Of a stretch of DNA of 64,000 nucleotides, positions 7,911 to 51,209 are shown one piece after another; position 1 is the first letter of the stretch, and every line of letters begins with the position of its first letter. Source of the stretch: an uncultured Rhodospirillaceae bacterium (GTDB taxonomy: Bacteria > Pseudomonadota > Alphaproteobacteria > Rhodospirillales > UBA2165); assembly GCA_964574215.1 (NCBI GenBank), contig CAZNLR010000010.1:9954-73953 (forward strand), read 5' to 3'. The notes under the pieces were generated by a model. The model saw nothing but the letters and a program-made list of their open reading frames with translations. It was not told where the DNA came from and ran no database searches. Both the position numbers and the translations under genes were made by a program.

Positions 7911-7940
7911 CCTTAATTCTAGATTAAGAAGGAGCTAACA

Positions 7941-8954
7941 ATGGCGAAGATCGTTTTGGGCATGGGAACCTCCCATAGCCCGATGCTGTCGACACCGCCG
8001 GAAGAATGGGGGCAGCGGGCCGAAGCCGATAAGAAAAATCCGGCCCACCCTTTTCGGGGCGATGTCTATACGTTCGAGGAACTGCTGGAAAAGCGGAAGG
8101 GTGAAAATTTCGCCGAGCGGTTCTCGGTTGATATTTGGCGAGAACAGCACGCCACCTGCATGGAAAAAATCGAGAATATGGCGCAAAGCTATGAGCAAGC
8201 AGCACCGGACGTGGCGATTATTTTCGGCAATGACCAAAATGAAGTGATTGTCGATACCAACATGCCGGCGTTCAGTGTTTTCTGGGGTGAAAAGCTCGAA
8301 AATATTCCCTATAGCGATGCCCAAAAGGCGAAACTCAATCCGGGTATCGGTATCGCAGAGCCGGGTCATACCCGCGACCAAACTGACGTGTATGACGGTT
8401 GCCCCGAACTCGGTAAACATATTATCGAACATTTAATTCAGAATGAATTCGATGTCGGCCAATCGAAACGCCTGCCGGAAATAGAAGATCACTGGTGGAG
8501 CGGTGTGCCTCATGCATTTGGCTTTATCTATCGCCAGATCATGAGGGATGAAGTCATTCCCAATGTGCCGGTGTTCACCAATACTTTTTTCCCGCCCAAT
8601 CAGCCGACGGTGGCTCGGTGCTATAAATTCGGCAAGGCCGTCCGCCAGGCGGTGGAAAGCTGGGACAGCGATAAGAAAGTCGCCGCCTTTTGTTCCGGCG
8701 GACTCAGTCATTTCAACATCGACGAAGAGCTTGACCGGCAGGTGATGGACGCCTTGAAAAGCAAGGACGAGACGAAAATCCTGGCGATCCCCGATAAATA
8801 CCTGACGTCGGGAACGTCGGAAGTGAAGAACTGGGTCACCTTGGCGGGGTTTCTTTCCGATACGCCGCTGGAAATGACTGTTTCTGAATATATTCCGTGT
8901 TATCGTTCCGCAGCCGGTACCGGCAACGCCATGGCTTTTGGTATTTGGCAATAG
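7941..8954 (+). CDS. Class III extradiol ring-cleavage dioxygenase (LigB superfamily)
   Basis: 337 aa. The N-terminus MAKIVLGMGTSHSPML is the hallmark start of LigB-type dioxygenases. SD is AAGAAGGAG. There is no separate LigA-like small-subunit gene. Confidence 0.75.
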   Translation: MAKIVLGMGTSHSPMLSTPPEEWGQRAEADKKNPAHPFRGDVYTFEELLEKRKGENFAERFSVDIWREQHATCMEKIENMAQSYEQAAPDVAIIFGNDQNEVIVDTNMPAFSVFWGEKLENIPYSDAQKAKLNPGIGIAEPGHTRDQTDVYDGCPELGKHIIEHLIQNEFDVGQSKRLPEIEDHWWSGVPHAFGFIYRQIMRDEVIPNVPVFTNTFFPPNQPTVARCYKFGKAVRQAVESWDSDKKVAAFCSGGLSHFNIDEELDRQVMDALKSKDETKILAIPDKYLTSGTSEVKNWVTLAGFLSDTPLEMTVSEYIPCYRSAAGTGNAMAFGIWQ

Positions 8955-8967
8955 GAACGGGAATTAT

Positions 8968-9627
8968 ATGAAGGAAAAATTAGTTGACCGGTTGCGTCAA
9001 ATCGACACCTGTGCCGTGTCGGACGCGCTGGACGCTCTGGGATTGATGGGAACAGTGATCGGTATCAAGCCGATCTCCGTCCTGCGCCGGGTCGCCGGAC
9101 GGGTCCAGACGGTAAAACTGGGACCGCCCCGCGACGACATTCCCAAAGTCCACCTTTGCTCGCGGGCGGTGGACGCCGCGGATCAAGGTGATGTCATCGT
9201 GGTCGAAAATCATCATCGCGAAGACGCGGCCGGGTGGGGCGGAATTCTCTCGACCGCCGCAGCTCACAAAGGACTGTCGGCCACCATCGTAGACGGGCCG
9301 GTGCGGGACGCCGACGAAAGCCGGGATGTGGACTATCCCGTGTTCGCCCGATCGGCCATTCCCTTTACCGCCCGGGGGCGCATCGCCGAACACGCCTGGA
9401 ATATTCCCGTTGAAATCGGCGGCGTGACTGTCAATCCCGGTGATTTGGTGCTGGCCGACGGCAGCGGTGTCGTTTTCGTCGATCAAAACCGGGCCGAAGA
9501 TATCGTCGCCAAGGCCGAAGAAATCGCCGCCAAGGAAGCCGCCATGGCGGCGGCGGTCCGCCAGGGTAAGAAAGTCAGCGATGTCATGGGTGGCGATTAC
9601 GAAAATATGTTGATCGAAAAAGATTAA
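8968..9627 (+). CDS. RraA-fold aldolase/decarboxylase paralog 1 (LigK/GalC 4-carboxy-4-hydroxy-2-oxoadipate aldolase family)
   Basis: ATG 8968 is preferred over the track start 8938, which would overlap the upstream gene. It carries the RraA-fold signature GWGGILSTAAAHKGLSATIVDGPVRD. Confidence 0.7.
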   Translation: MKEKLVDRLRQIDTCAVSDALDALGLMGTVIGIKPISVLRRVAGRVQTVKLGPPRDDIPKVHLCSRAVDAADQGDVIVVENHHREDAAGWGGILSTAAAHKGLSATIVDGPVRDADESRDVDYPVFARSAIPFTARGRIAEHAWNIPVEIGGVTVNPGDLVLADGSGVVFVDQNRAEDIVAKAEEIAAKEAAMAAAVRQGKKVSDVMGGDYENMLIEKD

Positions 9628-9671
9628 AGGGGGAGTAACTCTTGATCAAATATCTCTCTAATTCCAATCAG

Positions 9672-9770
9672 CCCCCCCACCCTAACCCTCCCCCTCCAGG
9701 GGGGAGGGGAAATAAAATAATGCCCTCTTTTCTTCCTCCCCCCTGGAGGGGGAGGATAGAGGTGGGGGGG
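9672..9770. repeat. Pair of inverted GC-rich REP-like palindromic units (BIME-like)
   Basis: Unit A is 9672-9709 (CCCCCCCACCCTAACCCTCCCCCTCCAGGGGGGAGGGG). Unit B is 9735-9770 in inverted orientation, with 32 of 36 aligned positions identical after reverse-complementing. Each unit has its own 9-bp stem CCCTCCCCC/GGGGGAGGG. Confidence 0.8.
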
Positions 9771-9799
9771 AAGCTTTCAAAAAACGGGGCTATATATTC

Positions 9800-10453
9800 A
9801 TGAGTGATCAGGCAGTCGAAAAAGCCAAAGGCCTTTCCACTTCAACCGTCAGTGACGCGTTGGACCGTTTGGGCATTGCCGGGCAGTGTCTGGGCATCAA
9901 GCCGGTCGACGTCAAGTTCCGCCTGTGCGGCCGCGCCTACACCATGCGGACAGTGCCGGCGGAGGTGGTCCCCGGCTCGGTCGGCGACTACATTGACGAC
10001 GTTCCCGCCGGTTCGGTGGTGGTCATCGATAATGGCGGCCGCCAGGATAAAACCGTGTGGGGGGATATCCTGACCTTCCTTGCCGACAGGATGGGCGTGG
10101 CGGGAACGGTCATTGACGGTAATTGCCGCGATATCCACCGCTGTATCGAGATCAACTATCCGGTATTTAGCCGGGGCTGGTCCATGCGGACGGGCAAGGA
10201 CCGGGTACAGCTTGATGATATTAATATCCCCGTCTCCATCGGCGACGCCCGGGTCGAGCCCGGCGATATCATGCTGGGTGACGCCGACGGTGTTCTGGTC
10301 ATCCCGAAAGAACACGAAGACAAAGTTATCGAACTGGCCCAGGAAATAGATGAGGCCGAGGAGGCTATTCTGGAAGCCATCGCCGACGGTCTTCGCTTGG
10401 ATGAAGCACGTGAAAAGTTTAAGTATCATCAGCTGCAAAAGCGCGAGAAATAG
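9800..10453 (+). CDS. RraA-fold aldolase/decarboxylase paralog 2
   Basis: 217 aa with the signature VWGDILTFLADRMGVAGTVIDGNCRD. Confidence 0.7.
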   Translation: MSDQAVEKAKGLSTSTVSDALDRLGIAGQCLGIKPVDVKFRLCGRAYTMRTVPAEVVPGSVGDYIDDVPAGSVVVIDNGGRQDKTVWGDILTFLADRMGVAGTVIDGNCRDIHRCIEINYPVFSRGWSMRTGKDRVQLDDINIPVSIGDARVEPGDIMLGDADGVLVIPKEHEDKVIELAQEIDEAEEAILEAIADGLRLDEAREKFKYHQLQKREK

Positions 10454-10455
10454 CT

Positions 10456-11082
10456 ATGTCCAATAGACTGTCCGACGACGTGATCCAGGAAGCAGCGAAG
10501 ATTCCGGCCGCGACTTTGCACGAGGCAGCGGGCAAGATCGGCGCATTGCCGTCCAATCTGAAACCGATTGCCAAGGGCATGAAAATTTGTGGCCGGGCCT
10601 TCACCATCCAGGGGCCTTCGGGGTGCAATTTGTGGCTCCACCGGGCTTTGGCGAAAGCTGAGCCGGGGGATGTCCTGATTGCCGATGTGGGCGGAAATCC
10701 GGAGTTCGGCTACTGGGGCGATATTATGGGAACGGCGGCTTTGAGCCGTGGGATCAATGGCTTGGTCATAGATGGCTGCGTCCGAGATGCGGTCGAACTG
10801 GAGGAAATGAATTTTCCGGTTTTTTCCGCCGGACTTTGCATCCGGGGAACGGACAAGCTGTTCGACGGCAAGGGCGCCCTCAATGAACCCATCACCATCG
10901 GTGAAATCACCGTTAATCCGGGTGATCTGGTTCTCGGTGATAATGACGGCTTGGCTGTCATCCCGGCCGACCAGGTGGCCGATACCATAAGCAAGGCCCA
11001 TGCACGCGAAGCAAAAGAAGACGGCGTAAAAGAACGATTGCGCACCGGAGAAACCACAATGGAAATATACGGCTGGGAATAA
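10456..11082 (+). CDS. RraA-fold aldolase/decarboxylase paralog 3
   Basis: 208 aa, starting 2 nt after the stop of paralog 2. Signature is YWGDIMGTAALSRGINGLVIDGCVRD. Confidence 0.7.
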   Translation: MSNRLSDDVIQEAAKIPAATLHEAAGKIGALPSNLKPIAKGMKICGRAFTIQGPSGCNLWLHRALAKAEPGDVLIADVGGNPEFGYWGDIMGTAALSRGINGLVIDGCVRDAVELEEMNFPVFSAGLCIRGTDKLFDGKGALNEPITIGEITVNPGDLVLGDNDGLAVIPADQVADTISKAHAREAKEDGVKERLRTGETTMEIYGWE

Positions 11083-11113
11083 AGGGCCGCTCTAAAAACC
11101 GAGGGATCATTCA

Positions 11114-12850
11114 ATGCCAAAAGAAACCATCGAATCGGGAATTGTCTCCGACGCCTATCTGCGGCTGCTGGCGGACCGGGGTATCGACTACATGTTTGTT
11201 AACGGCGGCACCGATTTTGCGCCGATTATCGAATCCTTCGCCAAGGCTGATGTTGAAGGCACAAAATTGCCCGAGCCGGTTATCGCGCCCCATGAAAATG
11301 TCGCGGTCAATATGGCCCACGGCTATTACCTGGTAACCGGCAGGCCCCAGGCTGTTATGGTGCATGTCAATGTAGGAACAGCCAACGCCATCTGCGGCGT
11401 GATCAATGCTTATCGGGATCGGGTGCCTATGCTGATGACGGCGGGAAGAACGCCGCTGACTGAAACCGAACTGCCCGGCTCCCGTTCGGGAAGTATCCAC
11501 TGGGCCCAGGAAATGTTCGATCAGGCGGGCATGCTCCGGGAAGCCGTGAAATGGGACTATGAACTGCGCAACGGCGAACAGGTGGAGGCGGTGGTCGACC
11601 GCGCCCTGGAAGTCGCTATGGCGGAGCCCAAAGGTCCTGTCTATCTGTCATTACCCAGGGAAGTTCTGGGCTACGAAATCAAGGATTTTCAATATGAAAC
11701 GCCGTCCCGCCGGGTGACCTCTTCGCCCACAGCGCCCGATCCGGCAGCCATCGAACAGGCTGCGGAAATGCTGGCCGGTGCCGAACGGCCTCTTTTTATC
11801 ACTAGGACAGCCGGACAAAATCCTCTGGCCGCCGAAAAAATGGCTGCTATCGCGGAAGAATATGCCATACCGGTTGGCGAATTCCGGCCCGTTTATAATA
11901 CCTTGCCCAATTCCCACCCCATGAATATCGGGTTCGATCTTAAGGACTATCTGGATCAAGCGGACTGCATCGTTACGTTGGATGCCGATTCACCCTGGTT
12001 GCCGGAGTTCCACGGGCAGCCAGCGGAGGATTGCCCAGTTATTCAAATCGCCGTCGATCCTTTGTTCCAGAACTATCCGATCCGGGGCTTTCCCCGGGAT
12101 CTTTCCATCGCCGCTGATATCGGTCTTGCCTTGGTTTCTTTGGAAAATGCCCTGGAAAAAGCCATGGCTGCGAAAAAAGACCGCATGGTTGATGCCATCG
12201 AAGCCAGGCGGGGCAGACTGGCGGAAAGGAGGAATGAGCGGCTGCGGCGGATTGAAGACGTCATCGGAAAAGTCAAAGCCCAGACCCCCCTCCATCAGGC
12301 CTGGATCACCCGTTGCCTGGACGAGCAGATTGACGATGATGCATTGATCTTCAACGATTATCCGTTGTTGTTGCCGTTTATGAACGAGCGGGAACCCAAT
12401 ACCTATTTCGGCACACCCTTGGCCGGCGGTCTCGGTTGGGGTGTCGGTGCGGCCTTGGGGGCCAAACTGGGCGCGCCGGACAAGCTGGTGGTATCGGCCA
12501 CCGGTGACGGGTCGTACATGTTCGGCAATCCCGTTCCGGCCCATCAGGTGGCCAGCGCCTACGACCTGCCGATTCTTTTTTTGGTGTTCAACAATTCCCT
12601 CTGGGGCGCCGTTAAGCGGTCGACCCTGGGCATGTATCCGGACGGTTACGCAGCCAAAAGCAACAAGATGCCCATCACCGAGATGGAACCGTCGCCGGAA
12701 TACGACAAGATCATGGACATGTTCGGCGGCTATGGGGAAAAGGTGGAAAACCCGGAAGACGTACCCGGCGCCATCGAACGCGCCCTCCATGCCGTCCAGG
12801 TGGAAAAACGCCAGGCCCTGCTCCATTTCGTCACCGGTCTGGCCTGGTAA
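11114..12850 (+). CDS. Thiamine-diphosphate-dependent enzyme (acetolactate synthase large subunit / benzoylformate decarboxylase-like)
   Basis: 578 aa with the three-domain ThDP enzyme length. It has the C-terminal ThDP-Mg motif GDGSYMFGNPVPAHQVASAYDLPILFLVFNN (GDG...NN). Confidence 0.75.
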   Translation: MPKETIESGIVSDAYLRLLADRGIDYMFVNGGTDFAPIIESFAKADVEGTKLPEPVIAPHENVAVNMAHGYYLVTGRPQAVMVHVNVGTANAICGVINAYRDRVPMLMTAGRTPLTETELPGSRSGSIHWAQEMFDQAGMLREAVKWDYELRNGEQVEAVVDRALEVAMAEPKGPVYLSLPREVLGYEIKDFQYETPSRRVTSSPTAPDPAAIEQAAEMLAGAERPLFITRTAGQNPLAAEKMAAIAEEYAIPVGEFRPVYNTLPNSHPMNIGFDLKDYLDQADCIVTLDADSPWLPEFHGQPAEDCPVIQIAVDPLFQNYPIRGFPRDLSIAADIGLALVSLENALEKAMAAKKDRMVDAIEARRGRLAERRNERLRRIEDVIGKVKAQTPLHQAWITRCLDEQIDDDALIFNDYPLLLPFMNEREPNTYFGTPLAGGLGWGVGAALGAKLGAPDKLVVSATGDGSYMFGNPVPAHQVASAYDLPILFLVFNNSLWGAVKRSTLGMYPDGYAAKSNKMPITEMEPSPEYDKIMDMFGGYGEKVENPEDVPGAIERALHAVQVEKRQALLHFVTGLAW

Positions 12851-13962: not shown

Positions 13963-14619
13963 ATGAGGCGGGGTAGGGCAATGGAAACCGGAACGATGGA
14001 TAATAATATTTCACCGTCCCTAGGCAGCGACGGCAACAAATACAAAAAAGGCCTCGAAACGCGGGATAAAATTCTCGCCGAAGCCTGCGCATTGTTCGAT
14101 AGCCAGGGCTTCGCCAAAACCTCCATTCGCCGTTTGATCAAGAATCTCGGTAAAAGCAGCTCGGTGGTCTACAACCACTTTGCCGACAAAGAAGACATTC
14201 TGTTCGTCATCACCCACGGCACCGGGGTCAAGGTCGTCAGCCTACTAAACGCGATCATGGATGAGACGGCGGACGCCGACGCGTGCCTGGAAAAAATGAT
14301 TTTGGATATGCTTTTTCTGATGGAGCAGCCTCGGGTAAAAATGGAAATCTCCATCTTCAACAACGAAGCCCACCATTTGCCCGAAGACAGGCGTAAATTG
14401 GTCAATGAGAAACACCTGGAAACCGTCCATCTGTTCGAACAGGCCGTAAAGGCCGTCTATAAAAAAAGAGGGTGTAGCGCCGTCAACGAAAAAATCGCCG
14501 CCTATAATATCCTGGCCGCCATCAATTGGGTCTATGTCTGGTACCGGGAAGACGGACCCTTGAGCCTGGAGGAGATCGCCCAGGACGTGGTTAAATTCAT
14601 ATTCCATGGATTAGATTGA
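13963..14619 (+). CDS. TetR/AcrR-family transcriptional regulator
   Basis: 218 aa, or 212 aa from ATG 13981. The HTH is TRDKILAEACALFDSQGFAKTSIRRLIKNLGKSSSVVYNHFADKEDIL. Confidence 0.85.
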   Translation: MRRGRAMETGTMDNNISPSLGSDGNKYKKGLETRDKILAEACALFDSQGFAKTSIRRLIKNLGKSSSVVYNHFADKEDILFVITHGTGVKVVSLLNAIMDETADADACLEKMILDMLFLMEQPRVKMEISIFNNEAHHLPEDRRKLVNEKHLETVHLFEQAVKAVYKKRGCSAVNEKIAAYNILAAINWVYVWYREDGPLSLEEIAQDVVKFIFHGLD

Positions 14620-15371
14620 TGACTGAAAGCATTCTCTTAAAAGATATCAAAGATCATGTCGCCGTGTTAACCCTCAACCGGCCCGACCAGGCCAATTCCC
14701 TGAGCCAGGATCTTTTTATTGCTCTCAAGGTCACGCTGGCGGAGTTGGACGCCGACGGCGAAGTGCGGGTGGTGGTGATGACTGGGGCCGGGGAACGGTT
14801 TTTTTGCGCCGGTGTCGACCTCAAAGAACGCGGCGCCATGACCGAGGACGAGGTCTGGGAAAACCGGAAAGTCGCCGTCAAACCCTGCTTCGATGCCTTC
14901 CGCACTTTTTCGAAACCGATCATCGCCGCCGCCAATGGCGTGGCCCTGGGCGGCGGCGCGGAGATTGCGCTGGCTTGCGACATTCGGCTGGCTGTACCCC
15001 ATGCCCAATTCGCCCATACGGAAATCAACTGGGGCATGATCCCGGCGGCGGGCGCCCATCAGCGGCTTCGCAATGTGGTCGGTCTCGGCATGGCCAAGGA
15101 GATCATGTTCACGGGCCGTAAGCTGGAGGCAGAAGAGGCCGGGCGGTTGGGCATCTACAATCATATTTACGCTCCCGACCAACTGATGCCGGAAGCTATG
15201 ACGATGGCTTCAACCATCGCCGGGCATTCACCCCTGGCGGTGCGGCAATCGAAAAAGGTCTACGACACCGGTGCTTATTCCGAAGAGGACTTCGAGTTCG
15301 AATACCAGGCCTCCATCGAATGCTATACCGACGGCGAGGCCATGACCGGCGCCAAGAGATTCAAGAAATAG
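14619..15371 (+). CDS. Enoyl-CoA hydratase/isomerase (crotonase fold)
   Basis: ATG 14619 overlaps the TetR stop (TGATG); the track start TTG 14616 is also possible. Motifs are FFCAGVDLKE and ANGVALGGGAEIALACDIRLA. Confidence 0.85.
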   Translation: MTESILLKDIKDHVAVLTLNRPDQANSLSQDLFIALKVTLAELDADGEVRVVVMTGAGERFFCAGVDLKERGAMTEDEVWENRKVAVKPCFDAFRTFSKPIIAAANGVALGGGAEIALACDIRLAVPHAQFAHTEINWGMIPAAGAHQRLRNVVGLGMAKEIMFTGRKLEAEEAGRLGIYNHIYAPDQLMPEAMTMASTIAGHSPLAVRQSKKVYDTGAYSEEDFEFEYQASIECYTDGEAMTGAKRFKK

Positions 15372-15529
15372 TTAATTTATCGACTGTCGATTAATTCATA
15401 CACTTTCACAACTTCGTTAATTCTCAACTGTCGAGAAATTGTCCTCTGGTCTAAAAACGTGAGAATTCAGCGACCAAAGGTTAATTTAACGACTGTCGAT
15501 TAATTCACAGGCTTTCACAACTTGGTTAA
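15371..15529. repeat. Two 50-bp direct repeats carrying CGACTGTCG-centred palindromes
   Basis: Repeats are 15371-15420 and 15480-15529, with 45/50 positions identical. Each begins with the near-palindrome TTAATTTxxCGACTGTCGATTAATT. A third related palindrome, TTCTCAACTGTCGAGAA (15421-15437), lies in the 59-bp spacer. Repeat 1 starts on the last base of the + gene stop, and repeat 2 covers the stop of the - gene. Confidence 0.85.
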
Positions 15530-16410
15530 AGCCCCAGCACTCTAATCGCGTTATCCCGCAGCAGCTTCTTCTTCACCGCATGTTTCAAGCCCAGTTCGTG
15601 GACCTGGGGCAGGATGTGGTCGTGGGTGAAGGCGGTGGGGCCATTGGTGCCCCAGAGGACCTTGTCCTGGCCGCGGGTTTTGACGAAGGTGAGCAGGCTT
15701 TTGTCCCAGTATTTCGGCATATGGGCGTCCATGCCCACATAGACGTTGTCGTGCTTCCAGGCCATGGCGATCATTTCCTCGCACCAGGGCCAGCCGGTGT
15801 GGGTGCCGACGATGGTCAGGCCCGGAAAATCCAGGGCGATGTTGTCCAACAGGATGGGTCGCGCGTGTTCGCTGGGCATGCTTTCCGCCGAATGTCCCAC
15901 CTGCATGGAAACGGGCACCCCCAGTTCCTCGCATTTGGCGTAGAAGGGATAGAGCCGGCGGTGGTCAATGGGAATGTTGAAACCGTAGACATGCAGATAG
16001 GCGGCCTTAAAGCCGAACTCCTTGATGCCCCGTTCCATATCGCGGACACCGTCCATGCCCTTCAGCGGGTTGATGCCGGCGAAACCGATGAAGCGGTCGG
16101 GGTGGGCTTCGATCACTTCGGCCATTTCCTCGTCGGTGACGTCGATGATAATGCGGTCTTCTTTGTAGGACTTCATTTTGAACTGCATCATGCAATGTCT
16201 TTCGACACCCGCCTCGTCCATCAGCGCCACCATTTCGTCCGGGGTCCAGCCCTTGCGGATGACCTCGTCAAACTTCCACCACTCGGCCAGTTTGCGCAGC
16301 TCGTCACTGGCGAACCAGTATTTCTCGAAATACTGCTGGGTAAACATATAGCCCATGAAATCGATGGCCTTAATTTCCTCTTCTTCTTCAATATTTTCCT
16401 TATCGGACAT
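15526..16410 (-). CDS. Amidohydrolase-2 family hydrolase/decarboxylase
   Basis: 294 aa with the Amidohydro_2 pattern (VSMQVGHS, IVGTHTGWPW, GMDAHMP). It is the last gene of a minus-strand CoA-metabolism operon. Confidence 0.65.
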   Translation of the reverse strand: MSDKENIEEEEEIKAIDFMGYMFTQQYFEKYWFASDELRKLAEWWKFDEVIRKGWTPDEMVALMDEAGVERHCMMQFKMKSYKEDRIIIDVTDEEMAEVIEAHPDRFIGFAGINPLKGMDGVRDMERGIKEFGFKAAYLHVYGFNIPIDHRRLYPFYAKCEELGVPVSMQVGHSAESMPSEHARPILLDNIALDFPGLTIVGTHTGWPWCEEMIAMAWKHDNVYVGMDAHMPKYWDKSLLTFVKTRGQDKVLWGTNGPTAFTHDHILPQVHELGLKHAVKKKLLRDNAIRVLGL

Positions 16411-16436: not shown

Positions 16437-17189
16437 TTAGAGACCAAACATGCCGCCGTCGACATTGATGACTTGGCCGTGAATATAGTGGCCTTCGTCC
16501 GAGGCCAGATATCTGAACATGGGGGCGATCATGTCGGTGGTGCCGAATTTGCCCATGAGAATGCGGTTGAGGGTCGCCTCCCGGAATTTTTCGTCGCCCC
16601 TGATGGTTTCGGTCATGGCCGTTTCCACCACGCCCGGGCAGACGGCGTTGACGTTAATGTCGTAGCGGGCCAATTCCTTGGCGCAGCTTTTCATCAGACC
16701 CAGCATACCGCCCTTGGCGGCGCCGTAATTGCATTGGCCGATGGTGCCTTCCGATCCGGCGATTGAAGATACGAAAATGATGGAGCCGTAATTCTGCCCC
16801 TTCATGTGGCGCGCCGCCTCCCGTGTACAGAGGAACGACCCGGTTAGGTGGGAGTTGATCACATTAAACCATTTATCCAGCGTCATATTGGTCAGCATGG
16901 CCGGGTCGGAGGCGCCGGCGCAATTGACCAGAATATCCACCTTGCCGTAGGTCTCCACCGTGTGATCCACCAGGGAGATAACCTGGTTTTCATCGCCCAC
17001 ATCGGTTTGGACGAAAATTCCCTTGCCGCCCATGCCTTCGATCTGGGAGAGGGTCTCCTTGACCTCGTCGTGTTCGGCGATATCGGATATGACCACCGTG
17101 GCGCCTTCACGGACGAACTCCAACGCGCCCGCCTTACCGATGCCGCGGCCGCCACCGGTAATGATCGCTACTCTGCCAGCCAGTTTCAT
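16437..17189 (-). CDS. SDR oxidoreductase, FabG-like (3-oxoacyl/3-hydroxyacyl reductase type)
   Basis: 250 aa with TGGGRGIGKA, NCAGA and the catalytic YGAAK. Confidence 0.8.
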   Translation of the reverse strand: MKLAGRVAIITGGGRGIGKAGALEFVREGATVVISDIAEHDEVKETLSQIEGMGGKGIFVQTDVGDENQVISLVDHTVETYGKVDILVNCAGASDPAMLTNMTLDKWFNVINSHLTGSFLCTREAARHMKGQNYGSIIFVSSIAGSEGTIGQCNYGAAKGGMLGLMKSCAKELARYDINVNAVCPGVVETAMTETIRGDEKFREATLNRILMGKFGTTDMIAPMFRYLASDEGHYIHGQVINVDGGMFGL

Positions 17190-17211: not shown

Positions 17212-18402
17212 TCAAATTACCCCATCTTCCCTAAGCTGCGCTCGCGCCGTTTCGTCGTAGCCGAGCTCGCTCAAAATTTCATCGGTATGCTGGCCGAAAG
17301 TGGGCGACGGTGAACGCAAGGTGTCCAGCTCGCCGGAAAAGCGGGCCGGGAAATCCAGTTGAACCTGTCGGCCCCGGTCCGGATCGTCCATCTCGGTTAT
17401 CAGTCCCCTCTCCCGAAGATGTTCGTCCTTCAGCATTTGGACAGTATCGAGGACCGGTATGACGCAGGTGTCCACGTCTTTAAGAAGATCGACCCACTCC
17501 TGCTGGGTCTTTCCGCCGATCAATTTCTTGACCGCCTCGGTGCCTTCTTCTCCTTCCCGGTAGTCCTCCAAATGGTGTTCCATCAAATCCATCCGGTCGG
17601 CGGCCTCCAGGAAATTCCGCCAGAATTTTTCCTCGTTGCAGCCCAGGGACATAAAGCGGCCGTCCTTGGTTTCATACGTATTGTAGACGATGCTGCCGCC
17701 TCTGAGATCGACCGGACGGGCGCGTTGGCCCTTTTGAGCGGCGAAGTGTTCGGCCACGCCCAGCAGATTGAAAGATGCCATAACATCGCTTTGGCAAACG
17801 TCGATATACTGGCCCCCGTTTTCATTTGGGCCCGTGTTGGCTTTCCCCATCAAAGCTGCCAAAACGGCAAAAGCGGTAAACAGGCCGCCGCCCGCCAAAT
17901 CGGAGAACAGCGCTCCCGGCACCACAGGGCGGCCGGTATGCTGACCGGTCAGATTGAGAATGCCGGAAAGGGCGAGGTAATTGAGGTCGTGCCCCGGCTT
18001 GTCCCGCAGCGGCCCCGTCTGGCCGAAACCGGTGGTGGAGCAATATATGATGTCCGGTTTAATCTCCTTGACCACATCGTAACCCAAACCCAGCCGTTCC
18101 ATGACTCCTGGCCGGAAACTTTCGATGATGACGTCGTAGTCGGGCACCAGTTTTTTGAAAATGGCAATGCCGTCCTCGTGCTTGAAGTTGAGCTTGAGGC
18201 TCTTTTTGTTGCGGTTGGCGAGAAGGAAGGCAGCGCTTTCATAAGACTGAGTGGCTTCGCCCCATCGGCCGTAATCGCCGACCGTGGGCTCCTCCACTTT
18301 GACCACCTCGGCGCCGAGATCGCCCAACAACATGGTGCAGTAATGATAAGGCAGCAGTCGGGTGCAATCTAGGATGCGGACGCCGGCGAGGGGTTGGTAC
18401 AT
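17212..18402 (-). CDS. Family III CoA-transferase (CaiB/BaiF type)
   Basis: 396 aa. The N-terminus LAGVRILDCTRLLPYHYCTMLLGDLGAEVVKVEEP is typical of the family. Confidence 0.85.
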   Translation of the reverse strand: MYQPLAGVRILDCTRLLPYHYCTMLLGDLGAEVVKVEEPTVGDYGRWGEATQSYESAAFLLANRNKKSLKLNFKHEDGIAIFKKLVPDYDVIIESFRPGVMERLGLGYDVVKEIKPDIIYCSTTGFGQTGPLRDKPGHDLNYLALSGILNLTGQHTGRPVVPGALFSDLAGGGLFTAFAVLAALMGKANTGPNENGGQYIDVCQSDVMASFNLLGVAEHFAAQKGQRARPVDLRGGSIVYNTYETKDGRFMSLGCNEEKFWRNFLEAADRMDLMEHHLEDYREGEEGTEAVKKLIGGKTQQEWVDLLKDVDTCVIPVLDTVQMLKDEHLRERGLITEMDDPDRGRQVQLDFPARFSGELDTLRSPSPTFGQHTDEILSELGYDETARAQLREDGVI

Positions 18403-18423: not shown

Positions 18424-19599
18424 CTAATTTACATGGTTCGATAGGATAATCACCACCGAGTTGCTGATGGAGCGGCCGCCCACATTGTGTTGCAACCCGT
18501 AGCCGTTTTTGATTTCCACTTGGCGCTCACCCGCTTCCTCGCGCAGATGCCAATAGAGTTCGCAACATTGGGCGACGCCCGTCGCCCCCAGGGGGTGGCC
18601 CTTGCACAACAGGCCGCCGCTGACATTTACCGGCAGGTCGCCGTCCCGTTCGGTGACGCCTTTTTCGATCAGGTGCTTGGCGTCGCCCCGGTCACAAAAC
18701 CCTAAATCTTCGTAGTCGATGATTTCGGTGATGGAGAAGCAATCATGCACTTCGGCGATATCCAACTGGTCCGGCGCAATGCCCGCCATGGTGTAGGCCT
18801 CTTTGGCGGACTTCACGGTCGCTTCGTAAGACGTATAGGATTCCACCTCGTGCTGATAATAATAATCGGTGCCGCAACCCATGCCCGCAATGTAGACCGG
18901 CTTGTCGGTGAACTTTTCGGCGATGTCGGCGTTGCAGATCAATAAACATGCCGCACCGTCGGTCTGGGGGCAGCAATCGAGAATATTAAGAGGCTCACAG
19001 ACGGTGGGCGATTTCATGACGTCTTCCACGGTGATTTCCGACTGGAACTGGGCATATGGGTCCAGGACGCCGTTTTTTCTGTTTTTAACCGCGACTTGGG
19101 CCATCTGTTCCTTGGTGAGGCCGTATTCGTGCATATAGCGGATGGCTTTGGGGGCGAACATGGTCATAGCCGTCTCGCCCAATGTCAGCAAAGGATGGCC
19201 CTGAACGGCAATGCCCAACAAGCCGCTGGTGGGCGCATCCCGCATTTTTTCGTAGCCGGCCACCAAGGCAACATCGTAGATACCCGACGCCACCCCGAAG
19301 GCGGCGTTGCGCAGCGTGTCGCTGCCGGTGGGGCAGCCGTTTTCCACGCGGGTGCAGGGGATGCCCGCCAATCCCAAATGACCCACCAGGCTGACGCCGC
19401 CCTGGGCGCCCTGGCCGTGCAGTTCGGGCCGTGCCGTGCCGATCCAGGCGGCCTGGATATCCTTGGGGTCCATGCCTTTGTCGACGCTGGCCAGACATGC
19501 CAGATAGGCTTCCTCCAGCATGACCTCCCAGCTTTTCTCAAAAAGCTCGCCAAACGGAATCATGCCCGCGCCGACCAAGGCCACCCGGTTCCAACCCAT
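18424..19599 (-). CDS. SCP-x-type thiolase (thiolase-like, non-AtoB type)
   Basis: 391 aa. The nucleophile context VENGCPTGS and the C-terminal motifs EVHDCF and GGLLCKGHPLGATG are retained. Its start overlaps the upstream gene's stop by 1 nt. Confidence 0.8.
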   Translation of the reverse strand: MGWNRVALVGAGMIPFGELFEKSWEVMLEEAYLACLASVDKGMDPKDIQAAWIGTARPELHGQGAQGGVSLVGHLGLAGIPCTRVENGCPTGSDTLRNAAFGVASGIYDVALVAGYEKMRDAPTSGLLGIAVQGHPLLTLGETAMTMFAPKAIRYMHEYGLTKEQMAQVAVKNRKNGVLDPYAQFQSEITVEDVMKSPTVCEPLNILDCCPQTDGAACLLICNADIAEKFTDKPVYIAGMGCGTDYYYQHEVESYTSYEATVKSAKEAYTMAGIAPDQLDIAEVHDCFSITEIIDYEDLGFCDRGDAKHLIEKGVTERDGDLPVNVSGGLLCKGHPLGATGVAQCCELYWHLREEAGERQVEIKNGYGLQHNVGGRSISNSVVIILSNHVN

Positions 19600-21056
19600 C
19601 AGTTGCTCCCCCCATTAATTCTAACGGGTCTAAAGACGTTGCCGTAGACGGCCACACCCTCCTGGGTGACAATTTTGCGCATCACCAGTTCGACCGGCAT
19701 ATCGATTTCCACATCGTCGGAAGTGCGAATTTCCGTGCCCAGCGCTCGGTAGCGATTGCCGTCATCCAGATCACCGATGATTAACGCCTGTGGCGCGGTA
19801 AGGGGTGGCGGTACATAGAGACTGAGGCAATAAGTGTGAACCGTACCGTTCCGGGACAATACCCAAGGGTCGAAGTCCGTACCACCGCAGCGGACGCATA
19901 TTTTTCTTATGGTGGCGGGATAACAGATATAGCCGCACGCCGTACACTTAATGGCGTCTCGCCGCCTGATTTCCCTGCCGTCCCGCCACAAGGCGGCGGA
20001 TGCAGGGGGCAGGCCGATCTTGGTTGGCGTATCCTGTTTTTCCAGCGTTCCTTTCATTCGGGCAAAGGCGACGTATTCCTCTACAGGGAAATTATCCTCG
20101 ACATAGGAGGAAACAGATTTAGACCGGTCTTTGATCGTTACGATAGCATCGGTCACGCGCAGCGAGACGGCGTCGCTGGCGCCGGACCCATAGGAGAGAA
20201 CCAGCACCCGTTGTCCCGGTTCGGCGTGATCCAAAATATCGGCGAGTCCGACCATTGCCGATGCCGCGCCCAGATCGCCCAAAGAATTAAATATATTACC
20301 GTGGCTAAAATGATCCTGACTGGCGCCAAGGGTTTTGACCATTCCTTTCACCATGCCGGCGTTGGGTTGTTGCAGGACGACATGGTCGAAATCACCAATG
20401 CCGGCCTGGAGTTTTTCCAGCAATCCGGTGGCGGCCGCTTCCATATGCTGCTTGTAACCGTAGTCCCGGGTAAAGCGCGGTTCGTATTCCTTGACGTATG
20501 GGCTGTCCGCATCCCGCCAGCGGTCGACAAAATTTGTAGCGTGGCTATAGGTTGCCTCAATTTCAGCGATAACGTTTTTCGTTCCCAACAGGAACGCCGC
20601 CGCGCCATCGCCGCAGTTCAGCTCCTCCTGGCTGCCCGCCGCTGCCGCACGCTCCTCGGCGCCGACCACCAGCCCGCTTTTGATGCGGCCCGACGCCACC
20701 GCGTCCTGGCAGGCTTTGAAAGCAGCGAAACTGGCCCGGGGTGAAGCGGTGAAATCGGCGTAATCGATCTCGTTACCGGCCCGCAGAACTTCGCCGATCA
20801 CACCCAGGGAAGAATGTTCGAAATCGAGGGCGGAGCCGGTGCCGAAATAGAGAGCGTTAAGGTCGGTGGCGCAGTCGATACCGGCATGGCTGACGGCGTT
20901 AAAGGCGGCCTCGGCGGCCATGGTGATGACATCTTCATCCGGACCGGCCACGGCATTGTTACCACGTCCACGGGACGACCATGCCTGGCCGATGACCGCG
21001 CGGTCGATGCGGTATTTGGGGATATAGACCCCGTATCCGGTAATGCCCACTGCCAT
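19599..21056 (-). CDS. HMG-CoA-synthase/KAS-III-fold domain fused to a DUF35 (Zn-ribbon + OB-fold) module
   Basis: 485 aa. The N-terminal ~345 aa align by eye to HMG-CoA synthase (FGTGS, NCGDGAAAFLLG, LSYGSGAS). The C-terminus has CTAC-x12-CVRC followed by an OB-fold-like segment, as in DUF35 proteins. Confidence 0.7.
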   Translation of the reverse strand: MAVGITGYGVYIPKYRIDRAVIGQAWSSRGRGNNAVAGPDEDVITMAAEAAFNAVSHAGIDCATDLNALYFGTGSALDFEHSSLGVIGEVLRAGNEIDYADFTASPRASFAAFKACQDAVASGRIKSGLVVGAEERAAAAGSQEELNCGDGAAAFLLGTKNVIAEIEATYSHATNFVDRWRDADSPYVKEYEPRFTRDYGYKQHMEAAATGLLEKLQAGIGDFDHVVLQQPNAGMVKGMVKTLGASQDHFSHGNIFNSLGDLGAASAMVGLADILDHAEPGQRVLVLSYGSGASDAVSLRVTDAIVTIKDRSKSVSSYVEDNFPVEEYVAFARMKGTLEKQDTPTKIGLPPASAALWRDGREIRRRDAIKCTACGYICYPATIRKICVRCGGTDFDPWVLSRNGTVHTYCLSLYVPPPLTAPQALIIGDLDDGNRYRALGTEIRTSDDVEIDMPVELVMRKIVTQEGVAVYGNVFRPVRINGGSN

Positions 21057-21065
21057 GGGAATATC

Positions 21066-21938
21066 TTAGCCTTTTTTACTGTGGTCGTAGAATCCTTTGC
21101 CGGTTTTAATGCCCAGATGACCCGCCGACACCATTTGACGCAGCAGCGGCGACGGCCGGAACCTGTCCCCCAATTTATGGGTCAGGTCGTCCAAGATCAT
21201 CAGGATGGTTTCCAAACCGATCAAATCGGAAAGTTCCAACGGACCCATCGGCCAATTGAACCCGTAACGGCAGGCCGCGTCGATATCTTCGGGCGAACTG
21301 ACGCCGTCGGCCAGGGTGTGGATGCCTTCGTTGATCATAATGATGCCGACCCGAGACGAGACAAAGCCGGGATAATCCTTGCAGGGGACGGGCGCCTTGC
21401 CGACCTCGGCCAGGAATTTGATCATCGTTTCCGTCGTTTCCGGGGCAGTGGAAAATCCATTGACCACCTCGACCAGTTTCATCACCGCGGGCGGGTGGTG
21501 AAAATGAGTGCCGATGGTCCGCCCCGGGTGTTTGGTCTGGTTCATCACATCGGTAATGGGCAACGCCGACGTGGTGGTCGCCAGGATAACGTTCTCCGGC
21601 ATCAGGGCATCCAAATCCGTCGCGATTTTGCGCTTGATATCGACGTTTTCGGGCGCCGCTTCGATAACCATATCGACATCCGCTGCCTCTTCGTAACTTT
21701 TGACCAAAGAAAGCCGTGAGGCGATGTCCTTGAAATCGGCCTCCGTGTATCTGCCTTTTTCGACGCCGCGGTTGACCGCCGCCAGAATTTTATCGTGGCC
21801 CTTTTGAGCGGCTTCTTCGGAGGCATCGAATAATTTGACCTCGGCGCCGCCGGTGACACAAACCTGGGCGATGCCGTGGCCCATTTGCCCTGCGCCCACA
21901 ACCAGTACTTTTTTAATATCCAAGGTGATCCCTCCCAT
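21066..21938 (-). CDS. 3-hydroxyacyl-CoA dehydrogenase (Hbd-like)
   Basis: 290 aa with VLVVGAGQMGHGIAQV. ATG 21938 has no SD. The sequence ATGGGAGGGATCACCTTG suggests the true start may be the TTG five codons downstream, using GGGAGGG as its SD. Confidence 0.85.
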   Translation of the reverse strand: MGGITLDIKKVLVVGAGQMGHGIAQVCVTGGAEVKLFDASEEAAQKGHDKILAAVNRGVEKGRYTEADFKDIASRLSLVKSYEEAADVDMVIEAAPENVDIKRKIATDLDALMPENVILATTTSALPITDVMNQTKHPGRTIGTHFHHPPAVMKLVEVVNGFSTAPETTETMIKFLAEVGKAPVPCKDYPGFVSSRVGIIMINEGIHTLADGVSSPEDIDAACRYGFNWPMGPLELSDLIGLETILMILDDLTHKLGDRFRPSPLLRQMVSAGHLGIKTGKGFYDHSKKG

Positions 21939-22198
21939 AAATATAACAAAAAACGAACGACCGTTTTTAAAATATTATGTGCTTAATTTAACCTTGTCAA
22001 CGGCGTCCGGCCAAGCCGGAAATTCGGTTTCGAAAGCCGTGAATGGAGTGATTTTTTACCTGAATTGCCGGACAAGTAAGTTGTATTTCAAGGTACGATT
22101 AGACAATAATAGCGATCCGGTTGTATTTTTACAGTCGGTTAAATGCTCGTCAGTCCACGCTTTATCGGCGTTGGGTATGATTGTAGGGAAAATTAACA

Positions 22199-22667: not shown

Positions 22668-24215
22668 ATGTTGAATCTCTGGCAGGCCTTGGACCGCACC
22701 ATTCGCCACAATTTGGATCGCACGGCGATCGTCGAAAAAATCGATGGCACCGCTTCCACCATGTCTTGGCGCGAGTTCGGCGAACGCGTTGGAAAATCTT
22801 CCGGTGTTTTGAAAGACCAAGGCGTATCCGAAGGGGCTGGATACGGCATATGTATGAAAAATTCCGCTCGTTTCGATGAGATCAAGTGGGCCGGATTTAG
22901 AGCCGGTGCCATCCCGGTGCCCATCAACTGGCGGCTGGCGCCACCCGAGATCGTGCATATCCTGGAAGACTCGGGCGCCGAAACGGTTTTTGTCGAAGCC
23001 GATTTTCTGCCGCTGTTCGAGGCGCCGGAATTGCAGCCGTGGCGCGACAAGCTGATATGCACCGATACGCCGGAGAATGGATCGGACTATTTGGTTTACG
23101 ACGATTTGTTCGAAAAGGCGGGGACCCCCGCGGCGGCTGATGTCGATCCGGAAGAAGACGCCATCCTTCTCTACACTGGCGGCACCACCGGCCGCAGCAA
23201 AGGCGTACGGCTTAGCCACACCAATATCTACACCTGCGCGGTGGCTTATACGATGGGACTGCAGGGCAAACCGGATGATGTCTATCTGCACGTGGCGCCC
23301 ATGTTTCATTCAGCTGATTTGCTGGCGACCGGCTGGTTTCTAATCGGCGCCGGGCAGGCCTATCTGCCCATGTTTTCGCCGCCCGCTCTCTTCGATGCCA
23401 TTGAAATATGCAGCGTAACCGTCGTCATATTGGTCCCGACGATGGTCATTATGACGCTCAACGATCCAAGTTTTGCCGCCTTTGACAGATCGAGCCTGCG
23501 CCGCATCGCCATTGGATCGGCGCCGCTCGCCCCGGAGCTTTCCAAAGGGCTGGCGGACAACTTCCCCGATGTCGGATTGTCCAATACTTACGGTCTGACG
23601 GAAGTGGCGCCCGATTTGACCATATTCGAACCCGATGAATTCAGGGAAGCCATTGATAAGGATTTGCCCCACCGGGCGTCGGTGGGTAAGCCAAACGTGT
23701 TTGTCGATCTCAAAGTCGTGGACGAGGACGGACAGGAAGTCGAACAGGGCGAGAGTGGTGAATTGTGGGCGCGCGGACCCAATATTATGAAAGGATATCT
23801 GAACCTGCCGGAACAAACGGCAGAGGTTCTGGTGGATGGCTGGTTCAAAACCGGCGATGTCGCGCGGTTTGACGAAAACGGTTACGTTTATCTGCTGGAC
23901 CGCACCAAGGATATGATCATCACCGGCGGCGAGAACGTCTATTCCACCGAAGTGGAAAACGTGTTGTACAAACACCCCGATGTTATGGAATGCGCCGTCA
24001 TCGGCGTCGCCGACGACAAGCTAGGCGAAAAACTGATGGCGGTGATTGTCCGGCGGCCCGATACCGACCCGACCCCGGTGGACATCATTGCGCATTGCCG
24101 GGAATCCATCGGCGGCTATAAGATACCGAGGCATATCGAATTTGTCGACGCCATGCCCAAAAACGCCATGGGAAAAATTCTCAAGAACGAATTGAGGGAA
24201 ATCTATAGCCAATGA
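22668..24215 (+). CDS. AMP-forming acyl-CoA synthetase/ligase
   Basis: 515 aa. AMP-binding motifs are LLYTGGTTGRSKGV, YGLTE and WFKTGDVARFDENGYVYLLDRTKDMIITGGENV. Confidence 0.85.
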   Translation: MLNLWQALDRTIRHNLDRTAIVEKIDGTASTMSWREFGERVGKSSGVLKDQGVSEGAGYGICMKNSARFDEIKWAGFRAGAIPVPINWRLAPPEIVHILEDSGAETVFVEADFLPLFEAPELQPWRDKLICTDTPENGSDYLVYDDLFEKAGTPAAADVDPEEDAILLYTGGTTGRSKGVRLSHTNIYTCAVAYTMGLQGKPDDVYLHVAPMFHSADLLATGWFLIGAGQAYLPMFSPPALFDAIEICSVTVVILVPTMVIMTLNDPSFAAFDRSSLRRIAIGSAPLAPELSKGLADNFPDVGLSNTYGLTEVAPDLTIFEPDEFREAIDKDLPHRASVGKPNVFVDLKVVDEDGQEVEQGESGELWARGPNIMKGYLNLPEQTAEVLVDGWFKTGDVARFDENGYVYLLDRTKDMIITGGENVYSTEVENVLYKHPDVMECAVIGVADDKLGEKLMAVIVRRPDTDPTPVDIIAHCRESIGGYKIPRHIEFVDAMPKNAMGKILKNELREIYSQ

Positions 24216-46070: not shown

Positions 46071-47834
<1,764 letters not shown>

Positions 47835-47873
47835 CTAGCGGCGAAACATTGCTATTTGCTTGGGTATACGTCC

Positions 47874-47887
47874 TTGACTTAAATCAA
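47874..47887. promoter_or_regulatory. FNR/NNR/Dnr-type box in the nirS-nirI divergent spacer
   Basis: TTGAC-TTAA-ATCAA (TTGAT-N4-ATCAA consensus family), 45 nt upstream of the nirS ATG within the 201-bp divergent spacer. Confidence 0.7.
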
Positions 47888-48029
47888 GGCTGGGAAGGCC
47901 TAATTTGTGGATTAAGCGAGTAGTGTTATTTGATTTTACCGCTGAACCTTGCAGCAATTATGAATATGATTCGGTTGTGCTGATTCTGTTTGATAATACA
48001 TTAGAATAAAATGATATGAGAAACATATA

Positions 48030-50636: not shown

Positions 50637-50653
50637 TAGAAGGGAGACACCAT

Positions 50654-51196: not shown

Positions 51197-51209
51197 GAGG
51201 GCATGATAA

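Follow-up and report, generated by a model that had tools for sequence, protein, structure and literature searches.

Here we describe a pair of overlapping genes on the minus strand of a 64,000-nucleotide stretch of contig CAZNLR010000010.1 (assembly GCA_964574215.1, positions 9,954 to 73,953), which comes from an uncultured Rhodospirillaceae bacterium. This whole stretch is called the window below. One gene encodes a fusion protein, in which a domain with the fold of 3-hydroxy-3-methylglutaryl-CoA synthase (HMG-CoA synthase, HMGCS) is joined to a DUF35 domain, and the other encodes a thiolase. We read the two coupled genes as a heteromeric degradative thiolase (probability about 0.8). The thiolase would be its sole catalyst, and the fusion protein, which has lost the catalytic tetrad of the synthase, would be a structural subunit.

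Open reading frame (ORF) calling and translation recover the two overlapping minus-strand ORFs that had been reported in a sequence-only reading of this DNA (Table 1). The junction between them is ...ACTGATGG..., where the TGA stop of the fusion gene and the ATG start of the thiolase gene share one base in TGATG. The overlap proposed earlier is thus a single nucleotide. The E-values of the matches described below are so low that these are real genes and not chance ORFs. The fused architecture, the residue losses, the motifs kept by the thiolase, the conserved coupling of the genes and their catabolic context are all direct observations of this analysis.

Domains and predicted fold of the fusion protein

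Residues 1-339 of the fusion protein match the archaeal-type HMG-CoA synthase model NF003274 with 272 bits (E 6.5e-81; cut-off 244) and the synthase chain of the Methanothermococcus thiolase/HMGCS/DUF35 complex (PDB 6ESQ_I) with an E-value of 3e-52. The next-best PDB matches of this HMGCS-like domain are PhlA, from the PhlACB acyltransferase (E 1e-42 to 2e-44), and MucA (9VBO_A). Residues from about 355 to 478 match DUF35 proteins, namely 6ESQ_E (E 5e-7) and the DUF35 of ChsH2 (6OK1_B, E 9e-6), as well as PF01796. Pfam assigns ACP_syn_III_C and OB_ChsH2_C to the protein, the latter in the DUF35 part. The zinc-ribbon cysteines C371, C374, C387 and C390 (19887-19946) are invariant across 97 fused homologs.

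A single-chain AlphaFold2 model built on the homolog alignment has a mean predicted local distance difference test score (pLDDT) of 93.6 and a predicted template modelling score (pTM) of 0.93. It forms one confident body that is weaker only at the linker, residues 340-353 or so. Superposed with Foldseek, the model fits 6ESQ_I with a template modelling (TM) score of 0.94 and a root-mean-square deviation of 1.3 Å, PhlA with a TM score of 0.91 and MucA with 0.88. The profile matches, the PDB matches and the single confident model confirm the earlier proposal that the HMGCS-like domain and DUF35 are one chain of 485 residues.

The catalytic tetrad of the synthase is lost

In the archaeal synthase, catalysis depends on E82, C114, H238 and N270, and the enzyme is inactive when all four are replaced (PMC12960953). 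The corresponding positions of the fusion protein were checked in four ways: by phmmer pairwise alignment to 6ESQ_I, by two MAFFT alignments of up to 270 homologs plus 6ESQ_I and PhlA, by hhalign profile-profile alignment and by agreement of the folds. The hhalign comparison of 97 fused with 34 catalytic homologs gave a probability of 100 and an E-value of 1.1e-81. The phmmer, MAFFT and hhalign alignments agree that the Glu, Cys, His and Asn positions hold G74, P106, Q229 and D261.

Two of the substitutions named in the sequence-only reading, catalytic Glu to Gly and catalytic His to Gln, are borne out as Gly74 and Gln229. A third, nucleophile Cys to Ser, is not. The Cys position is Pro106 and Ser105 lies one residue before it; the assignment was wrong because the ungapped alignment behind it was off by one. 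The fourth tetrad residue is also gone, with Asp261 in place of Asn. Cys, His and Glu are not restored at the catalytic positions in the profile alignment. The structural motifs NCGDGAAAF (residues 147-155) and SYGSG (residues 288-292) are kept, as had been noted.

A relocated nucleophile was not found: across 201 fused homologs there is no alternative conserved Cys in the HMGCS-like domain. Where active enzymes have A-C-K around the nucleophile, 171-176 of these 201 proteins have S-x-R, with a variable central residue (P, L, T or V). In the window this motif is S105-P106-R107, at 20736-20744 on the minus strand. PhlA carries C/G/Q/D at the four positions in the MAFFT alignment where the window's fusion protein carries G/P/Q/D. 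This is consistent with the published description of PhlA, in which Gly115 replaces Cys and Cys83 replaces Glu (PMC6392133).

The thiolase keeps its catalytic motifs

The thiolase matches 6ESQ_A with an E-value of 2.8e-83 (283 bits) and the SCP2-thiolase 6HSJ with 2e-62. Matches to the BbsB chain 7PXP_C (E 4.8e-51) and to Ltp2 (6OK1_A, E 4e-36) were also found, and the match to PhlC is far weaker (108-112 bits, E 1e-30 to 1e-31). The earlier observation that the Cys/His/Cys motifs are kept holds in a motif table, which lists C89-P-T, HDCF and GHP. The CxS motif has Thr for Ser, as in many partner thiolases, and HDCF is the SCP2-thiolase form of its motif. C-x-S/T, HDCF and GHP are likewise present in all 35 thiolases examined from other genomes whose genes adjoin that of a fused protein.

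In the aldolases the HDCF position reads YDHF (Ltp2) or YDCY (Sal; PMC12329534), and PhlC and MucB are without HDxF (PMC12960953). Since the kept motifs are unlike those of Ltp2, Sal, PhlC and MucB, the window enzyme reads as a thiolase and not as an aldolase or a Friedel-Crafts acylase. The sequence comparisons therefore support a pair made up of a putatively working thiolase and a presumably dead HMG-CoA synthase that is fused to a zinc-ribbon/OB-fold domain.

The family of fused homologs

The homolog search covered 5.8 billion clustered proteins and 1.84 billion representatives. It found hundreds of relatives of about 470-490 residues with the same fused architecture. The catalytic Cys is retained in none of the 201 homologs in which the HMGCS-like domain is followed by DUF35. 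The full E-C-H-N tetrad is present in all 36 unfused relatives, of about 350 residues, that retain the Cys. Twenty-odd proteins are unfused but degenerate and resemble PhlA in that respect. The sole fused protein with an intact tetrad (P0212) has the reverse domain order, OB/DUF35 and then HMGCS.

Average-linkage clustering, which gives a rough grouping and not a phylogeny, places the window's fusion protein in a group that is mostly x-P-Q-D at the tetrad positions. This group clusters nearer to the active archaeal enzymes and PhlA than does the larger fused group, which carries T-L-Y-N and other sets. The other fused subfamilies have T-L-Y-N, T-L-P-F or T-V-D-Q and are found in different operon contexts.

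Archaea mostly have the active unfused form, and one Odinarchaeota locus (L017) has a thiolase gene followed by a degenerate HMGCS-like copy (STQD). Unfused tetrad-less genes were also seen at L013 (ALQD) and L018 (SLQD), where the gene order is DUF35, thiolase, HMGCS-like. At L025 a separate fused pair has DUF35 and thiolase genes beside it, and at the end of that contig tblastn matches the HMGCS-like part. L013, L018 and L025 are from Dehalococcoidia, Thermodesulfobacteriota and Chloroflexi. Such unfused and archaeal degenerate copies indicate that tetrad loss is not strictly tied to fusion or to bacteria. In one further protein (P0197, 723 residues), which may stem from a chimeric gene call, an HMGCS-like domain is combined with ATP-grasp and molybdopterin-binding domains.

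The gene pair in other genomes

Eighty loci from species-representative genomes were compared. In 39 of 46 fused cases the fusion gene is followed by the thiolase gene at a distance of -8 to +67 nt. The loci come from Desulfobacterota, Chloroflexota, Syntrophorhabdus, Spirochaetota, Myxococcota, Binatia, Actinomycetota and Alphaproteobacteria. Homologs of the window's hydratase, dehydrogenase, short-chain dehydrogenase/reductase (SDR), CoA-transferase, ligase or amidohydrolase flank 24 of 42 fused loci. The same flanking homologs occur in only 2 of the 36 loci that have just an unfused synthase-like gene, most of which are active and archaeal.

The closest genome is a Rhodospirillaceae metagenome-assembled genome (L005), in which the fusion protein is 77% and the thiolase 92% identical. 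It keeps the 3-hydroxyacyl-CoA dehydrogenase (92%), SDR (85%), amidohydrolase, enoyl-CoA hydratase, TetR, ligase (80%) and molybdenum enzyme (87%) in a rearranged order, and the CoA-transferase is absent. Full beta-oxidation operons surround the pair at L086, L087 and L088. By Pfam, L087 has an SDR, two MaoC genes, the fusion, the thiolase, the 3-hydroxyacyl-CoA dehydrogenase, acyl-CoA dehydrogenases, electron transfer flavoprotein (ETF) and enoyl-CoA hydratase, and the Chloroflexi locus L086 has a similar set plus Amidohydro_2. Ligases, an ABC transporter, a carboxyltransferase and 2-hydroxyacyl-CoA-dehydratase-like genes lie around the pair at L085 (Pfam).

Fused homologs are also carried on catabolic megaplasmids of Rhodococcus, Sphingobium, Novosphingobium, Variovorax and Azoarcus. 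On plasmid p3 of Novosphingobium sp. ES2-1 a fused pair (tetrad positions T-L-S-F; thiolase CAT/HDCF/GHP) lies in an estrogen-degradation-type cluster. This cluster also encodes a P450, VOC dioxygenases, an enzyme of the indolepyruvate-ferredoxin-oxidoreductase family, Ltp/DUF35 and a FadD3 ligase.

A distant pair, 29% identical and with A-T-Y-N at the tetrad positions, is found in uncultured Desulfobacterium sp. TRIP AH-1 and a Desulfobacteraceae metagenome-assembled genome (L039 and L040). It is flanked by homologs of the window's SDR (46%), 3-hydroxyacyl-CoA dehydrogenase (61-63%), amidohydrolase (46%), enoyl-CoA hydratase and ligase. This accessory gene set recurs in a sulfate reducer. Amidohydrolase homologs adjoin fusion-thiolase pairs in these two genomes and in L005.

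Operon and genomic context

Six minus-strand genes, including the pair, form a tight operon with intergenic gaps of -1 to 26 nt. The coordinates of its genes, of the residues discussed above and of the neighbouring genes are given in Table 1.

Table 1. Features of the fusion-thiolase locus, in window coordinates
Feature	Position	Strand	Basis or remark
HMGCS-like/DUF35 fusion protein, 485 aa: degenerate archaeal-type HMG-CoA-synthase fold, linker, DUF35	19599..21056	-	ORF, NF003274, Pfam, PDB matches
HMGCS-like domain, aa 1-340	20037..21056	-	phmmer, MAFFT, hhalign alignments; codon coordinates checked; Foldseek
Codon of G74 (Glu position)	20835-20837	-	
Codon of P106 (Cys position)	20739-20741	-	
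Codon of Q229 (His position)	20370-20372	-	
Codon of D261 (Asn position)	20274-20276	-	
DUF35 domain, aa ~354-485: zinc ribbon, then OB fold	19602..19997	-	6ESQ_E, 6OK1_B, Pfam OB_ChsH2_C, beta-strand content of model
SCP2/archaeal-type thiolase, 391 aa	18424..19599	-	translation, junction, 6ESQ_A, 6HSJ, Pfam Thiolase_N and Thiolase_C_1
Thiolase Cys89 (C-P-T)	19333-19335	-	
Thiolase H285-D-C287-F	18736-18747	-	
Thiolase G-H335-P	18592-18600	-	
3-Hydroxyacyl-CoA dehydrogenase, operon gene 1	21066..21938	-	Pfam 3HCDH_N, 3HCDH; PRK05808 319 bits; 9 nt 5' of fusion gene
Family III CoA-transferase	17212..18402	-	Pfam CoA_transf_3, E 3.5e-97; 21 nt 3' of thiolase
FabG-like SDR (3-oxoacyl or (3R)-hydroxyacyl-CoA type)	16437..17189	-	Pfam/NCBIfam and best matches
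Amidohydrolase_2 (metal-dependent hydrolase/decarboxylase superfamily), last operon gene	15526..16410	-	PF04909 E 1e-38
Promoter-like TTGACA-17-TAATAT upstream of operon	21972..22000	-	consensus match only
TetR regulator	13963-14619	+	convergent with operon
Crotonase-type enoyl-CoA hydratase	14616-15371	+	NCBIfam enoyl-CoA hydratase; convergent with operon
Acyl-CoA ligase	22668-24215	+	Pfam/NCBIfam; divergent from operon
Molybdopterin (bis-PGD family) oxidoreductase, 908 aa	24212-26938	+	4 nt overlap with acyl-CoA ligase

Promoter-like sites in the region are not above the shuffled expectation, and the candidate in front of the operon is suggestive by its position alone. For the amidohydrolase_2, NCBIfam gave no hit and the PDB nothing closer than the uncharacterised 3IRS; it may serve the pathway as a dedicated hydrolase or decarboxylase. 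A response regulator gene is also divergent from the operon. The ligase and the molybdenum enzyme probably belong to the same pathway module as the operon. The coupling of a molybdenum enzyme to CoA activation is unusual. This protein has no twin-arginine translocation (Tat) motif, its N-terminus reads C15-x2-C18 ... C54 without the usual third Cys, and among PDB entries it resembles only ArrA and PsrA, and these weakly.

Two known pathways were compared with the gene set. The thn operon of anaerobic naphthalene degraders lists the same enzyme families (PMC12016498), but no direct link to a thn-like alicyclic ring-cleavage pathway was found and the analogy is a loose one. A phloroglucinol-type pathway, with the SDR as phloroglucinol reductase, the amidohydrolase as ring hydrolase and the molybdenum enzyme as transhydroxylase, was dropped. 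The SDR best matches generic FabG/(3R)-hydroxyacyl-CoA dehydrogenases, the amidohydrolase matches only the uncharacterised protein, and the similarity of the molybdenum enzyme is the weak one to ArrA and PsrA.

By Pfam and NCBIfam, the annotated ORFs across the window are catabolic, transport and respiratory genes only. Genes of the mevalonate pathway were not found in the window, nor were polyketide synthase (PKS) or nonribosomal peptide synthetase (NRPS) genes within about 20 kb of the pair. An aerobic aromatic-catabolism block at 6423-12850 on the plus strand encodes an HpaB-like flavin monooxygenase, a LigB-like extradiol dioxygenase, three tandem RraA/CHA-aldolase-like paralogs and a thiamine pyrophosphate enzyme of the uncharacterised family PRK08327 (686 bits). 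Denitrification-type genes at 46071-55586 encode a NirS-like cd1 nitrite reductase, a NosR-like FMN/4Fe-4S membrane protein and a heme-copper NorB-like oxidase, with a cytochrome b/4Fe-4S/FlpD fusion protein at 53982-55586. An ORF of 694 residues at 43895-45979 on the minus strand has no Pfam match.

Comparison with known systems

The scaffold-plus-thiolase arrangement is already published: a homolog was characterised in 2026 and the anomaly was flagged in 2020. The pair in the window is a further example, in a catabolic operon. Liao et al. (2026, Nat Commun) listed 1,030 bacterial loci with HMGS, ACAT and DUF35 domains, 1,001 of them without adjacent secondary-metabolite genes (PMC12960953). 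Their PfACAT/HMGS-DUF35 from P. fluorescens cleaved acetoacetyl-CoA thiolytically and made neither HMG-CoA nor acetoacetyl-CoA. The activity was lost on mutation of the HDxF His, and the authors called the complex an evolutionary intermediate that is not yet recruited to a pathway (PMC12960953). The window pair shares with it the fused tetrad-less HMGS-DUF35 protein, the adjacent thiolase with Cys, HDxF and GHx, and the lack of PKS/NRPS neighbours. The window pair lies inside a tight catabolic operon, whereas PfACAT/HMGS-DUF35 has no defined pathway. The nearest proxy for the P. fluorescens protein, a Pseudomonadales locus (L070), is 32% identical and has T-L-Y-N where the window has G-P-Q-D.

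Ibero et al. (2020) reported an "HMG-CoA synthase" (EGO55_13555) beside a thiolase (EGO55_13550) in the edc estrogen-degradation cluster of Novosphingobium (Caenibius) tardaugens (PMC7793797). They could give it no step, judged a condensation senseless in that context and saw it fall into a phylogenetic group of its own (PMC7793797). In the N. tardaugens and ES2-1 clusters, as in the window, the HMGCS-like gene adjoins a thiolase within a beta-oxidation-like operon and has a hydroxyacyl-CoA dehydrogenase neighbour. The estrogen-cluster relative is about 30% identical to the window's fusion protein and has different replacement residues; the fused architecture was confirmed in the ES2-1 sequence, not in N. 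tardaugens itself. The P450, extradiol dioxygenase, Ltp/DUF35 and FadD3 that mark the steroid context of these clusters do not occur in the window.

Each of the three modules finds its best PDB match in the archaeal 6ESQ complex (2018; chains 6ESQ_I, 6ESQ_A and 6ESQ_E). This complex and the window pair are alike in fold, in the order of synthase then thiolase gene, in the thiolase motifs and in the four-Cys zinc ribbon and OB fold of DUF35. The archaeal complex has an active synthase with E82/C114/H238/N270, a separate DUF35 chain and an anabolic function in the mevalonate pathway. The window pair differs in the lost tetrad, the fused DUF35 and the catabolic context.

The Friedel-Crafts acyltransferases PhlACB (PpATase, 5M3K/5MG5) and MucABC (SmaATase, 9VBO/9VBT) also have a tetrad-less HMGCS-like subunit, which takes no part in catalysis but without which the complex does not fold correctly. 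In PhlACB only PhlC residues are catalytic, and correct folding of the complex depends on PhlA and PhlB (PMC6392133). The thiolase-like subunit of these acyltransferases lacks HDxF, has a remodelled acceptor pocket and acylates phenols or tetramic acids, whereas the window thiolase keeps HDCF. Their DUF35 is separate, and they belong to biosynthetic clusters.

The benzoylsuccinyl-CoA thiolase BbsAB (7PXP) resembles the window pair in combining a DUF35 zinc-finger subunit with an SCP2-type HDxF thiolase that acts on a bulky beta-oxidation intermediate, but it has no HMGCS-like module. The window proteins score far under the NCBIfam cut-offs for BbsA (24.7 against 250 bits) and BbsB (187 against 750 bits). 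The steroid side-chain aldolases Ltp2-ChsH2(DUF35) and Sal-Shy(DUF35) share a thiolase fold and a DUF35 that is fused to another enzyme. In these systems the chemistry is Tyr-based, with YDHF/YDCY, and DUF35 sits on a MaoC hydratase. In the window the thiolase motifs are kept and DUF35 sits on the HMGCS-like domain.

Proposed mechanism and alternative explanations

The fusion protein may be a descendant of an archaeal HMG-CoA synthase/DUF35 pair that was joined in one chain. Its zinc-ribbon/OB part would clamp the thiolase and bridge two thiolase-fold dimers, as the scaffold does in 6ESQ, 5M3K and 9VBO. The dead synthase part would dimerise and line a shared CoA/acyl cavity at the interface. 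Judging by homology and the order of the genes, either the CoA-transferase or the CoA ligase would activate an acid, the nearby crotonase would then hydrate it, and the complex would cleave the 3-oxoacyl-CoA from the upstream 3-hydroxyacyl-CoA dehydrogenase. In the thiolase, Cys89 would be the nucleophile that becomes acylated, HDCF would supply a His and the acid/base Cys, and GHP a second His, with oxyanion help; CoA would then attack. We infer the formation of the complex, the thiolytic direction and the absence of synthase activity by analogy, with indirect support from the translational coupling of the two genes and their adjacency in 39 of 46 cases. Our weak guess for the substrate is an aromatic-derived, alicyclic or otherwise bulky carboxylic acid in a host that is a facultative anaerobe, given the HpaB-like, LigB-like and three RraA/CHA-aldolase-like genes upstream and the denitrification genes downstream.

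The sequence-only reading had proposed a scaffold subunit of a thiolase/retro-aldolase complex. A non-catalytic partner of a thiolase is supported by the four substituted residues, by the lack of an alternative conserved Cys and by the published biochemistry of the fused homolog. The retro-aldolase half of the proposal did not stand, given Cys89 and HDCF in the thiolase where Ltp2 and Sal have YDHF and YDCY. Several points weigh against a purely structural role and a degradative thiolase. Within the window's subfamily, Pro106, Arg107, Gln229, Asp261 and Ser105 are conserved above the average column, which hints that the pocket may still be under selection beyond folding; this measure is partly circular since the subfamily is defined partly by those residues. 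The biochemical support comes from homologs outside this pair and its subfamily, and the characterised P. fluorescens protein could belong to the x-P-Q-D group or to the more distant T-L-Y-N group (about 30% identical). The subunit interface is drawn from homology, and the preference for cleavage over condensation from context and one homolog.

An alternative that we consider unlikely, yet worth weighing, is that the dead synthase pocket was re-purposed, either holding the bulky acyl part and setting specificity or carrying out a new reaction through new residues such as Ser105, Arg107, Gln229 and Asp261. This would be compatible with the thiolase as the C-C-cleaving catalyst. It would suit the prevalence of S-x-R in place of A-C-K among the fused proteins and the high conservation of Pro, Gln and Asp in the window's subfamily, where other subfamilies differ in both residue set and operon context. 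PhlACB also has a continuous cavity between the PhlA and PhlC sites (PMC6392133). However, a shared chemistry is made less likely by the 140 more distant fused proteins, in which few columns are less conserved than those of the His and Asn positions. In addition, the conservation within the subfamily carries the circularity mentioned above, and no ligand or activity is known for any PhlA-like domain.

The remaining alternatives concern the reaction itself, and all are far less probable. The thiolase could run in the condensing direction (Claisen condensation, as in reverse beta-oxidation), like the archaeal ketothiolase/DUF35 pairs proposed for fatty-acid synthesis (bioRxiv 10.1101/2024.07.05.601840). 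Thiolase reactions are reversible and the operon has a FabG-like SDR, but we hold this to be improbable: the fused homolog did not condense acetyl-CoA (PMC12960953), the operon goes with enzymes that activate acids, with a TetR regulator and with an NAD-type (S)-3-hydroxyacyl-CoA dehydrogenase, and relatives lie beside acyl-CoA dehydrogenases and ETF and in an estrogen-degradation-type cluster. A Friedel-Crafts C-acyltransferase of the PhlACB/MucABC type, passing acetyl to a small-molecule acceptor, would have the same three-module composition, and the HMGCS-like domain is near PhlA in sequence and fold, with the Gln and Asp substitutions in common. It is a very improbable reading of a thiolase that keeps the HDCF which PhlC and MucB lack and scores 283 bits to the archaeal thiolase against 108-112 to PhlC, in a pair with beta-oxidation neighbours in place of PKS/NRPS genes; the fused P. 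fluorescens complex, moreover, acted as a thiolase (PMC12960953). Cleavage of a 3-hydroxyacyl-CoA without thiolysis, by a retro-aldolase complex like Ltp2-ChsH2(DUF35) or Sal-Shy, seems scarcely more than conceivable. The DUF35 partner, the thiolase fold and the match to Ltp2 are in common, but the aldolases have YDHF/YDCY and Tyr residues (PMC12329534) where the window enzyme keeps Cys89, HDCF and GHP, and their DUF35 sits on a MaoC hydratase. The dehydrogenase gene directly before the pair, furthermore, implies a supply of 3-oxo substrate. A true channeling complex of thiolase and HMG-CoA synthase that serves the mevalonate pathway would agree with the NF003274 score and with the name HMG-CoA synthase that NCBI gives to several family members. 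It is effectively refuted by the sequence, in which all four catalytic residues are absent; the archaeal quadruple tetrad mutant is inactive and the fused homolog makes no HMG-CoA (PMC12960953), and the window has yielded no gene of that pathway.

Implications for annotation and for the family

The NF003274 equivalog cut-off is passed by a protein without any of the catalytic residues, so the name 'hydroxymethylglutaryl-CoA synthase' would be a misannotation here. NCBI records give this name to several fused tetrad-less relatives (P0005, P0031, P0033, P0035 and P0040), and the misannotation of such proteins looks systematic. It can yield false mevalonate-pathway calls in bacterial metagenome-assembled genomes, for which a check of the four residues is a simple filter.

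The beta-oxidation-like operons in many phyla, the catabolic megaplasmids and the estrogen-type cluster do not fit the published view of an unrecruited intermediate. They point to the fused complexes as dedicated thiolases for unusual acyl-CoA substrates. Tentatively, and with more doubt than confidence, the dead synthase may be no leftover or intermediate but the module that sets specificity in a widespread class of catabolic thiolases, with a pocket contiguous with the thiolase site, and the window complex may serve an uncharacterised pathway. If so, the degenerate pocket would hold bulky, cyclic or aromatic acyl groups, and each residue set (x-P-Q-D, T-L-Y-N, T-V-D-Q or another) would adapt it to a different pathway. 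The pathway in the window would then also use the orphan amidohydrolase_2 and the cytoplasmic molybdenum enzyme that is translationally coupled to the acyl-CoA ligase. In this marine, denitrifying alphaproteobacterium, a degradation pathway not characterised before may be encoded by the conserved module of dehydrogenase, fusion protein, thiolase, SDR, amidohydrolase, hydratase, ligase and molybdenum enzyme.

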